In this document: positions 44,201-47,200 of the stretch, piece by piece
How positions within the stretch are numbered: position 1 is the first letter of the stretch
How the letters are laid out: every line of letters begins with the position of its first letter
DNA from: Octopus vulgaris
Taxonomy: Eukaryota
DNA length: 64,000 bases
Reading direction: 5' to 3'
NCBI GenBank assembly: GCA_951406725.2
Contig: OX597820.1
Location: 3,162,001 to 3,226,000, forward strand
Made by a program: the position numbers and the translations under genes
The notes under the pieces: generated by a model
Told to the model about the DNA's origin: nothing
Seen by the model: only the letters and a program-made list of their open reading frames with translations
Databases searched by the model: none

Positions 44201-47200
44201 CAGATCAGATTGGAGCCTGACGCAGCCTCCTGGCTCTCCAGACCTCAGTCAAACCGTCCAACCCATGCCAGCATGGAAAGCAGACATTAAACAATGACGA
44301 TGATATTTTTGTTTCTCTCGCCAGGTGTGTTTTTGCATAAAAATATATTTTCGTTTCTCTTGCCAGGTGTGTTTTTGCATAAAAATGTATTTTCGTTTCT
44401 CTCGCCAGGTGTGTTTTTGCATAAAAATGTATTTTCGTTTCTCTCGCCAGGTGTGTTTTTGCATAAAAATATATTTTCGTTTCTCTTGCCAGGTGTGTTT
44501 TTGCATAAAAATGTATTTTCGTTTCTCTCGCCAGGTGTGTTTTTGCATATAGTTGCTGATACATTAGGAAGTGTTGGTGTTATAATTTCTTCTGCCCTCA
44601 TTCATCAGTTTGGTTGGATGATTGCTGATCCCATATGTTCCATGTTTATAGCTACTTTAATAGGTGTCAGGTGAGTCATTTTTATTCATATTGTACACAA
44701 TATTACGTTGTATTTTGGGAAGGACAGTTTGCCAATAATAAACACATGCGCTGGTTCTATTTCACTTCTTTTAGTATTATTAGTCAACTGGTTAATTATA
44801 CAGTTCTATATTTAAGGGATGGGGAATTATGTACATTATTTACATGTGACAGATATTTATCCTCCTCTTGTTTGTTGTTAACAACAAACAAGATGAGGAC
44901 AAATATCCGTCAAATGTAAATAATATAATTGGTTAATTATTTCATCAGTTAACTCATTGTTTGATCAGTAAATCGGTGAGCTAGGGTGTACGGAATATTT
45001 TATCCAGAATTTTCCTATATGCACTGATTTCATTCCAATCCTCCTTGTGCTGCCGTGAAAGACCCTTTCTCTAAACACTCCCTCCCTCCCATACTTCACA
45101 GTGACATCTACTTATTGCTTTTAACCCTTTTGGCTCCCATGCCAGTGGCACATAAAAAGCACCATTCAAGCATGGTTGATGCCAGTACCGCCTGACTGGC
45201 CCTCGTGCCAGTGGCAATGTAGGGTGTACAGAATATTTTATCCATACACTACATTTTTGGAGCAGTTGGTGTTAGGAAGGGCATCCAGCTGTAGAGACCT
45301 TGCCAGATCAAGATTGGAGCCTGGTGCAGCCTTCTGGCTCACCAGTCCCCATTCAAACCGTCCGACCCATGCCAGCATGGAAAACGGACGTTAAACGACG
45401 ACAATGATGATGATGATTATTCTGTCAGTTTTATGATGTTATTCATCATCATCATCATTGTCGTCGTTTAACGTTTGATTTCCATGCTGGCTTGGGTTGG
45501 GCGGTTTGACTGAGGACTGGTGAGCCAGAAGGCTGCACCAGGATCAATCTGATCTGGCAAAGTTTCTACAGCTGGATTCCCTTCCTAACACCAACCACTC
45601 CAAGAGTGTAGTGGGTGCTTTAGGGACAGTCAGGCGGTTCTGGCAATGACCACGCTCAAATGTTGTTTTTCACATGCCAGTAGGAAGACTCTGGCAATGA
45701 TCACACTTGAATGGTGCTTTTCACGTGCCACCAGCACAGGAGCCAATCCGTGGCCCTGGCAACGATCATGCTTGGATGTGCTTTTAACGTTCCACTAGCA
45801 TGAGTGCCAATCAGGCAGAACTGTCATCGGCCACGTCAGCAGTTTTGATTTCACTTGCCTCAACAGGTCTTTGCAAGCAAAGTTTATTGTCCAGTGAGTG
45901 AGGGGTATTCATAAGCGGGCTGGTTACCCCCACTGGCATAGGCCACAGTCTCACTTGGCTTGTCAGGTCTTCTCAAGCACAGCATATCTCCAAATGTCTC
46001 AGTCACTAATAAAGGAAATTAAGTCTAGTTTTACTGGTGTGTTTAGTGTGGGGCCTGATTGACATAGATGCAGAACCTTATATGTATGATTTGAGCAAAG
46101 TTGACCCCCAACATTGGGACCAACTTCATGCAAGCATGAAGGCATGCTGGCAGAATGCTGCTCCTCTAAATGCAAACCTTAGCTGTCATTGTGGTTTTGT
46201 GGCACGAAGCAAAGCAAGCCTTGCCGTCCACTCAAGAAAACACACTGTAACTGATCCACAAGCACTCAAGCCAATTGAGCCCTCACCTTGTCCCATTTGC
46301 CAAAAGGTTTACAAGATGCCTGCAGGCCTCAAGAGACACGCCAGTGTCCATAGAACATGATTAACACTTTATTTTACTGAAACTTTGTCATTCACAACAC
46401 CAGAATCAATCAGATGCACACACACACACAAATCATTCTTATTATTGGAAATAGGTGAGGGTTGGTGACAGGATGGGCATCCAGTCATAGAACCTCTGTC
46501 TGATCTACGCAACCATGGAGAGTGCACGTTAACTAGTGATGGTGTCTATCAACGAAAGCCGACATCTTCAGATCCACGTCAGCTGGCTTTGTAAATATTA
46601 ACAACACAATTACTTTCATTGTCTTTTAGTGTAATACCACTTTTGAGAGACTCAGCAGGAATTCTGATGCAAAAGACCCCACGGCAGCTAGAATCCTCTT
46701 TACCTGGATGCTATCAAAGGGTATGTTCTTTAACGCTTTCGTTACTCTATTTATTTTGAGATGCTGTGTGTTCCTTTCAATTGATTTTATATATAACAAA
46801 GAATTTATTAAAATAACTTAGTTATAATTAAGCTAATGTTAGGAACATAAAATGTGACTAAGGTTTGGTGGAAGATTTTAATTCAGAACTTATGAAAACA
46901 AGACATTTGTACTAACGAGCCAGAGCCAGTTTCAGCTGGGTTGATAACGAAAGGATTAATCTCAATAAATGCTTGAAACTGGCAAGTTTTTAGTTGTTTG
47001 GAATTAGTCTTTTATTCTTTTACTTGTTTCAGCCATTAGACTGTGGCCATGCTGGGGCACAACCTTGAAGAAGTTTAGTTGAATGAATTGACTTCAGTAC
47101 TTTTTTTTTAAGCCTGGAACTCATTCTATCAGTCTCTTTTGCTGAACCACTATGTTATGAGAATATGGTTGTCAATCCTATGTGGGAGACTACCAAACAC

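Follow-up and report, generated by a model that had tools for sequence, protein, structure and literature searches.

A sixfold repeat of the ZnT7 exon 8 splice acceptor in octopus is probably a near-neutral passenger of intron 7

When the end of an intron and the start of the next exon have been copied several times in a row, which of the resulting acceptors joins the message, and does the protein change? The question is raised by a 64,000-nucleotide stretch of Octopus vulgaris DNA (contig OX597820.1, positions 3,162,001 to 3,226,000; referred to here as the window), where a sequence-only reading described six tandem, in-frame copies of the exon 8 acceptor of a zinc transporter gene and proposed that they could produce a ladder of transporter isoforms. 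The answer depends on the identity of the host gene, the existence of the repeat outside the assembly, and the joints found in RNA.

The following features define the host gene.

20204..52246, + strand: ZnT7 (SLC30A7) gene, 11 coding exons, 368 amino acids, with an exon chain matching protein P0001 exactly
40632..40760, + strand: exon 7 (His-rich loop), carrying the weakest of the gene's 10 donors
44535..44670, + strand: exon 8, 136 nt, encoding TM5 with HIVAD and TM6, followed by a strong donor (8/9 matches to the U1 consensus)

Both the naming of the gene as ZnT7 and the numbering of its exons 7 and 8 in the sequence-only reading held up. If 44535 is taken as the start of exon 8, the 11 GT-AG exons translate exactly to P0001, which aligns with human ZnT7 (8j7t) over residues 1 to 368 with an E value of 1.8e-152, while the next family reaches 2e-41. 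By itself, exon 8 gives 30.1 bits with Pfam Cation_efflux (PF01545), above the cut-off of 26.6. The protein carries HxxxD motifs in TM2 (HMFFD) and TM5 (HIVAD) and a His-rich loop, and is of the short form that lacks the long N-terminus of ZnT5. Two Octopus species have the 368-residue, insert-free protein on record under the name zinc transporter 7; part of this record may stem from annotation of the present assembly and to that extent be non-independent. Set beside the cation diffusion facilitator family (PF01545; 8j7t), the protein encoded by the observed mRNA shows no difference, and by its sequence it is predicted to be an ordinary ZnT7. Internal exons of the gene measure 54 to 150 nt, and introns 7 and 8 measure 3,774 and 1,959 nt. 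The exon 7 donor, GTCTGG (40761 to 40766), matches the U1 consensus at 5/9 positions, the lowest value among the 10 donors.

At the junction of intron 7 and exon 8 lie the repeat and its six AG dinucleotides.

44303..44549, + strand: 42-bp minisatellite of 5.9 copies, each unit joining the last 27 nt of the intron to the first 15 nt of the exon and containing a single AG
44323..44492, + strand: five upstream pseudo-acceptors with AGs ending at 44324, 44366, 44408, 44450, and 44492, each followed by GTGTGT; no use seen among the listed joints
44533..44534, + strand: acceptor in use (sixth AG, ending at 44534), joint 40758->44533 (cut +2), GT..AG, at depth 238.8 in RNA run X10 and depth 12 in RNA run X11

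Tandem Repeats Finder reported a period of 42, 5.9 copies, 96% matches, no indels, and a score of 452, with the AGs spaced 41 to 42 nt apart and the unit types in the order B-A-B-B-A-B. Each unit carries a complete copy of the authentic splice site, as in minisatellites that span an exon boundary, and in all six units the AG is directly followed by a donor-like GT (CAG/GTGTGT). When the exon ending at 40760 was joined to each AG, 6/6 joins were in frame and free of stops, adding 70, 56, 42, 28, 14, or 0 amino acids, and HIVAD was reached by the reading frame of the sixth copy only. The anatomy, frame, and maximum insertion of 70 residues given in the sequence-only reading were all reproduced, with the qualification that the first copy retains in place only about 21 of its 27 intronic bases. 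Acceptors 3 and 6 are identical over 98 nt upstream and 15 nt downstream, which fits the 126-bp higher-order duplication that had also been suggested, and acceptors 4 and 6 are identical over 47 nt upstream and 15 nt downstream. In the 2.8-Gb genome, a 20-mer spanning the acceptor has six occurrences, every one inside this array, and no second gene copy or dispersed array unit was found among the best 40 of 424 candidates scored.

An open frame across six units might be taken as a sign of selection. This was rejected, as 276 of 2,195 possible boundary-spanning duplications of 20 to 80 bp at this boundary are in frame and stop-free by chance. To place the array against its background, complex arrays with a period of 20 to 100 and at least 90% matches were counted in 20 stretches at round coordinates (200 kb in total), which held six, one of them with at least 4 copies; the window holds four. 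With about 200,000 acceptors per genome (an order of magnitude), hand arithmetic with a wide error predicts, before selection, about 150 arrays straddling an acceptor, a few tens of them with at least 4 copies. Since comparable young arrays occur at 6 per 200 kb, some will fall on acceptors by chance. Further young tandem duplications are present in the ZnT7 introns at 34853 to 34926, 41100 to 41187, and 41788 to 41836 (periods 30, 28, and 22; 93 to 96% matches), and the background sample contains a young minisatellite of 27 bp by 9.7 copies at 96% (L042:5968-6228).

The sequence-only reading had allowed that independent data might reveal a single unit, making the array an artefact of assembly. 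Contigs from 4 of 24 listed runs were aligned on 40550 to 46850: X1 and X2 (DNA) and X10 and X11 (presumed RNA), representing four studies; the metatranscriptome runs X18 to X20, with small word shares, were given no weight as evidence. Array-specific contigs were listed for 3 of these 4 runs, from three studies (2018, 2019, and 2022). In X2, a 114-nt array-only contig (44436 to 44549) had a depth of 36.7, and array-only contigs from X10 (114 nt, 44311 to 44424) and X11 (72 nt, 44394 to 44465) were, like that of X2, free of mismatches. In simulations at k=31, pieces of 113+31 nt and 71+31 nt corresponded to A-B and B-B cycles, and a genome with one extra unit or none yielded no such cycle piece. 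The artefact explanation, in which the genome carries a single acceptor, draws on word shares: in the best DNA runs these were 0.79 to 0.81, equal to the 0.798 expected of a single-copy allele. However, X2 has the same word share and still contains its array-only contig, so word share was discarded as a measure of genotype. With mismatch-free contigs in X10 and X11 matching the simulated A-B and B-B cycles, and three studies represented, an artefact is extremely improbable. Outside this assembly, samples from three or more studies contain the array.

These contigs demonstrate presence, and the copy number of six is the value of the assembly. The window allele was expected in the simulation to break into pieces of 31 to 77 nt; intact cycles were seen instead, pointing to either different alleles or graph simplification. 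For X1 (DNA), no array contig was among those listed, and of an array-bin depth of 102.4 the exon contig accounts for 13.3. The exon 8 contig of X1 starts at 44521, compared to 44520 predicted from an array-only genome. This offset weakly suggests another allele in which the base ahead of the last tract differs, for example a single-copy one. The A-B cycles in X2 and X10, the B-B cycle in X11, and the shifted start in X1 together hint at variation in array copy number among individuals, a pattern that low depth or graph simplification could also give and in which depth is not to be read as copy number. The acceptor minisatellite may be polymorphic.

Splicing was examined in two RNA runs, out of 8 candidates from organism A containing the stretch. 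One X10 contig (record 9; 1,468 nt, depth 238.8) and one X11 contig (record 16; 1,562 nt, depth 12) each pass without a break from exon 7 to 44535 and continue into exon 9. The exon 7 to exon 8 join spans 3,774 nt from 40760 to 44535 with GT..AG ends, and the exon 8 to exon 9 joint (44668->46628, cut +2) crosses 1,959 nt in both runs; these GT..AG joints identify both records as spliced RNA. No joint to an upstream acceptor was found among the strongest joints listed for X10 and X11, which stand above a further 611 weaker ones in the alignment, so that the site adjoining the intact exon dominated the mRNA in 2 of 2 RNA runs, as seen in contigs. The X11 mRNA contig also carries a G-to-A change in exon 9 at 46687, which is synonymous (Gln codon 292).

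Contigs from the array itself were at the level of the intron. The array contig of X10 had a depth of 2.6 compared to 2.6 to 4.3 for intron contigs from the same run, and that of X11 had a depth of 4.5 compared to 3.5 to 3.7. If all array words in X10 are assigned to the shortest upstream isoform (27/84 words), such an isoform would amount to roughly 3% of the mRNA by hand arithmetic; in X11, an array depth of 4.5 is not small beside an mRNA depth of 12, and the run is too shallow for an upper bound. Contig depth is a poor measure of expression, and contigs drop rare variants, placing isoforms under a few percent below what they show. The RNA donors could also have been heterozygous or pooled, in which case the mRNA might come from an array-free allele. 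Among the best 120 of 1,708 protein matches listed (from a search restricted to proteins of 203 to 2,000 amino acids), no homologue aligned over the repeat as an insert, and the best match (Octopus, 100% identity) covers exon 8 only, or 39% of the query. The predicted ladder of transporter isoforms was therefore not borne out by mRNA contigs that pass straight from exon 7 to 44535 while the array stays at intron background. The junctions from the exon 7 donor at 40760, which the sequence-only reading had proposed to count, were listed on contigs for 44535 alone, close to the outcome it had associated with a neutral repeat.

The RNA contigs, joining the last acceptor only, argue that the minisatellite probably leaves the transcript together with intron 7, as a likely near-neutral passenger. 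Two other explanations assign the upstream acceptors a role. In one, they would yield proteins with 14 to 70 extra residues before TM5, meaningful in some tissue or scaled by copy number. None of the six joins shifts the frame or meets a stop, and such products would escape nonsense-mediated decay; in alignments, the extra residues would sit where the variable His loop ends, leaving TM5 intact. Some human donor-side minisatellites do make use of their pseudo-sites (6-16 and CBS intron 13; PMC1557585), and one repeat unit is retained in ABCA7 (PMC5954066). Against this, the last-acceptor mRNA contigs are unbroken in two studies, the X10 array contig confines upstream use to the few percent roughly calculated above, no insert-bearing protein appeared among the best 120 of 1,708 matches listed, and the open frame itself is matched by chance in the 276 of 2,195 duplications already described. 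Such isoforms are unlikely.

The other explanation leaves the mature mRNA unchanged. Because every unit combines an acceptor with a donor, the array could act as a self-clearing ratchet in which upstream acceptors are often used first, the join recreates a donor (the last three bases of exon 7 followed by GTGTGT), and the leftover repeat is cut out as a second intron. The leftover would be 210, 168, 126, 84, or 42 nt, of which the pieces of 84 to 210 nt would be removable. A 42-nt piece is probably too short to splice, so acceptor 5 should leak an isoform, and no such isoform was seen. Each unit's CAG/GTGTGT matches the U1 consensus at 7/9 positions, and the regenerated junction of exon 7 with a unit matches at 6/9, compared to 5/9 for the native exon 7 donor; however, an exon beginning with GT is common in this gene, occurring at 4/10 acceptors. 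No intermediate was seen, in contigs that could not show one. One-step and re-spliced products are indistinguishable in mRNA (PMC8184009), and human UBC does splice at tandem AGGT dual sites (PMC10809524). Regenerated sites are, however, suppressed by the exon junction complex (PMC8184009). Taken together, re-splicing of this kind seems a doubtful proposition, slightly more so than the isoforms.

If the array is instead a silent repeat, the difficulty is how the last acceptor wins. A weak TAA at −27 is common to acceptors 2 to 6, an inserted element gives acceptor 1 three TRA motifs, and acceptors 3 and 4 are identical to acceptor 6 over the distances given above, so neither tract strength, branch motif, nor first-AG scanning can single out the last site. 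An advantage of the last site in branch point was rejected on the same distribution of TAA and TRA motifs, and RNA structure masking the upstream sites was rejected because 24 of 100 shuffles fold as well (z = −0.64). As acceptors 3 and 6 share 98 nt before and 15 nt after the cut, the information for the choice must lie beyond exon base 15, and this is likely exon definition. Both flanking introns are long (3,774 and 1,959 nt), and exon 8 would be recognized across the exon, the winning acceptor being the one nearest the strong downstream donor and the sole one with a full exon body after it. The last acceptor would define an exon of 136 nt, compared to 178 to 346 nt for the upstream acceptors, each of which is followed by only 15 exon bases before the next unit. 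Where flanking introns are long, the sites with the shortest exonic distance between them are favored, yet for human 3′ sites under exon definition the preference for upstream sites is described as reduced rather than reversed (PMC9225289). Exon definition alone may therefore not explain such a clean choice.

Several human repeats offer precedents for a silent array. The closest is CBS c.844_845ins68, in which 52 intron and 16 exon bases are duplicated to give a pair of near-identical 3′ splice sites, the distal site is used, and the mRNA is normal (PMC7490669, PMC2630376, PMC1802585). The octopus repeat is likewise a tandem copy of the intron end and the next exon's first bases (27 + 15 nt compared to 52 + 16 nt) with the distal site in use, but it has six copies rather than two. 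In CBS, G runs located between the two sites favor the distal one, whereas the octopus unit has no G run; it is also a stop-free multiple of three and donor-like at each AG, unlike the CBS insertion. On the donor side, the 37-bp VNTR of human F7 intron 7 contains pseudo-sites that are silent but were shown by mutation to be functional, and 6-16, CBS intron 13, lamin B2, and PDGF have further minisatellites of this type, with two pseudo-sites used in 6-16 and CBS intron 13 (PMC1557585). These share with the octopus array a position across the exon-intron boundary, use of the site by the intact exon, and mostly silent pseudo-sites; they differ in lying at the donor and in having pseudo-sites of demonstrated function, where those of the acceptor-side octopus array are putative.

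Two other repeats resemble the octopus array in part. Units of the ABCA7 intron 18 VNTR also carry a splice site, with a minor one-unit isoform and possible effects of length, but that array is on the donor side and out of frame, and effects of its length on expression and exon skipping have been shown (PMC5954066). Considered together with regenerated recursive sites (PMC8184009), the dual-specific sites of UBC are tandem AG/GT motifs with in-frame spacing as well, yet the UBC units are coding and generate a real ladder (PMC10809524), whereas the octopus units are mostly intronic and neither a ladder nor donor use was seen. No published account of the octopus ZnT7 repeat locus was found by title or abstract start among the papers listed, although supplements could list such loci. 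A search by title likewise found no acceptor-side splice-site array among those listed, and no matching case was found in PMC10078293.

The silent octopus array is thus likely a tolerated repeat like the known human cases, not a source of new transporter forms, and it extends the CBS and F7 examples to a six-copy, in-frame, acceptor-side array. Acceptors 3 and 6, sharing 98 + 15 nt with only the distal one seen in mRNA, form a natural control, which argues that exon-side information, and not tract strength or first-AG scanning, selects the 3′ splice site in a mollusc gene with long introns. The importance of this is modest as it stands and would be greater if re-splicing or copy-number-dependent isoforms were true. 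Should re-splicing occur, a splice-site repeat could expand in a single-copy transporter gene without changing the protein, and six sites with natural A/B variants would allow acceptor choice and re-splicing to be tested against each other in a cephalopod. For mapping, the locus is a trap: because units share only 15 exon bases, a short read across the junction may be placed at the wrong acceptor.

The 5′ edge of the array provides evidence of its history, in the form of a split first unit.

43911..43919, + strand: ATAAAAATA, probably the 5′ part of the first unit, moved out of place; type-A units have the same 9 nt
43920..44303 (edges approximate), + strand: 5′-truncated dispersed repeat with a GAT-type tail, inside the first unit; very abundant

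In type-A units these 9 nt immediately precede TATTTT; here they stand 384 bp upstream of the rest of the first unit, which resumes at 44304, to the right of the inserted element. A 9-nt match of this kind at the insertion edge was reached in 1 of 7,056 control windows. The element is 84 to 88% identical to genome copies (best 40 of 6,550 candidates scored) and is shortened at its 5′ end relative to other copies. Judged from this arrangement of the sequence, it likely inserted into the first array copy, although no clear target-site duplication flanks 43920 to 44303, and recombination between two haplotypes could yield the same split-unit picture. Because the inner units are intact at the insertion point, duplication likely came before insertion.

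With the insertion taken out, two ATA trinucleotides, one intronic (at the start of the ATAAAAATA motif) and one at exon bases 13 to 15, would lie 42 nt apart, and this microhomology accounts for the unit. The first duplication may have come from unequal exchange or slippage involving the two, after which a retroelement tail would have entered the 5′-most copy and the inner units expanded further. Only about 21 nt separate the retroelement tail from the first acceptor downstream. In a single-copy gene, such an insertion would part the tract from the upstream branch region, an effect that downstream copies may have buffered.

The inserted element is 79% identical to 29599 to 29881, the 3′ end of a long element (26319 to 29881) which we take, from its open frame, to be of the reverse transcriptase (LINE-like) type. 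That element has a stop-to-stop frame of about 830 codons (26319 to 28811), then a stretch at 28815 to 29363, then the GAT-tailed 3′ end, to which numerous short dispersed copies in the window correspond. The element sits in the 12.5-kb ZnT7 intron 2, and related fragments are found at 8347 to 9424. Of the relatives that score best against the inserted element, eleven (L012, L014 to L017, L019, and L021 to L025) lie on C28 of the genome with near-identical flanks, which suggests that they belong to a larger duplicated unit.
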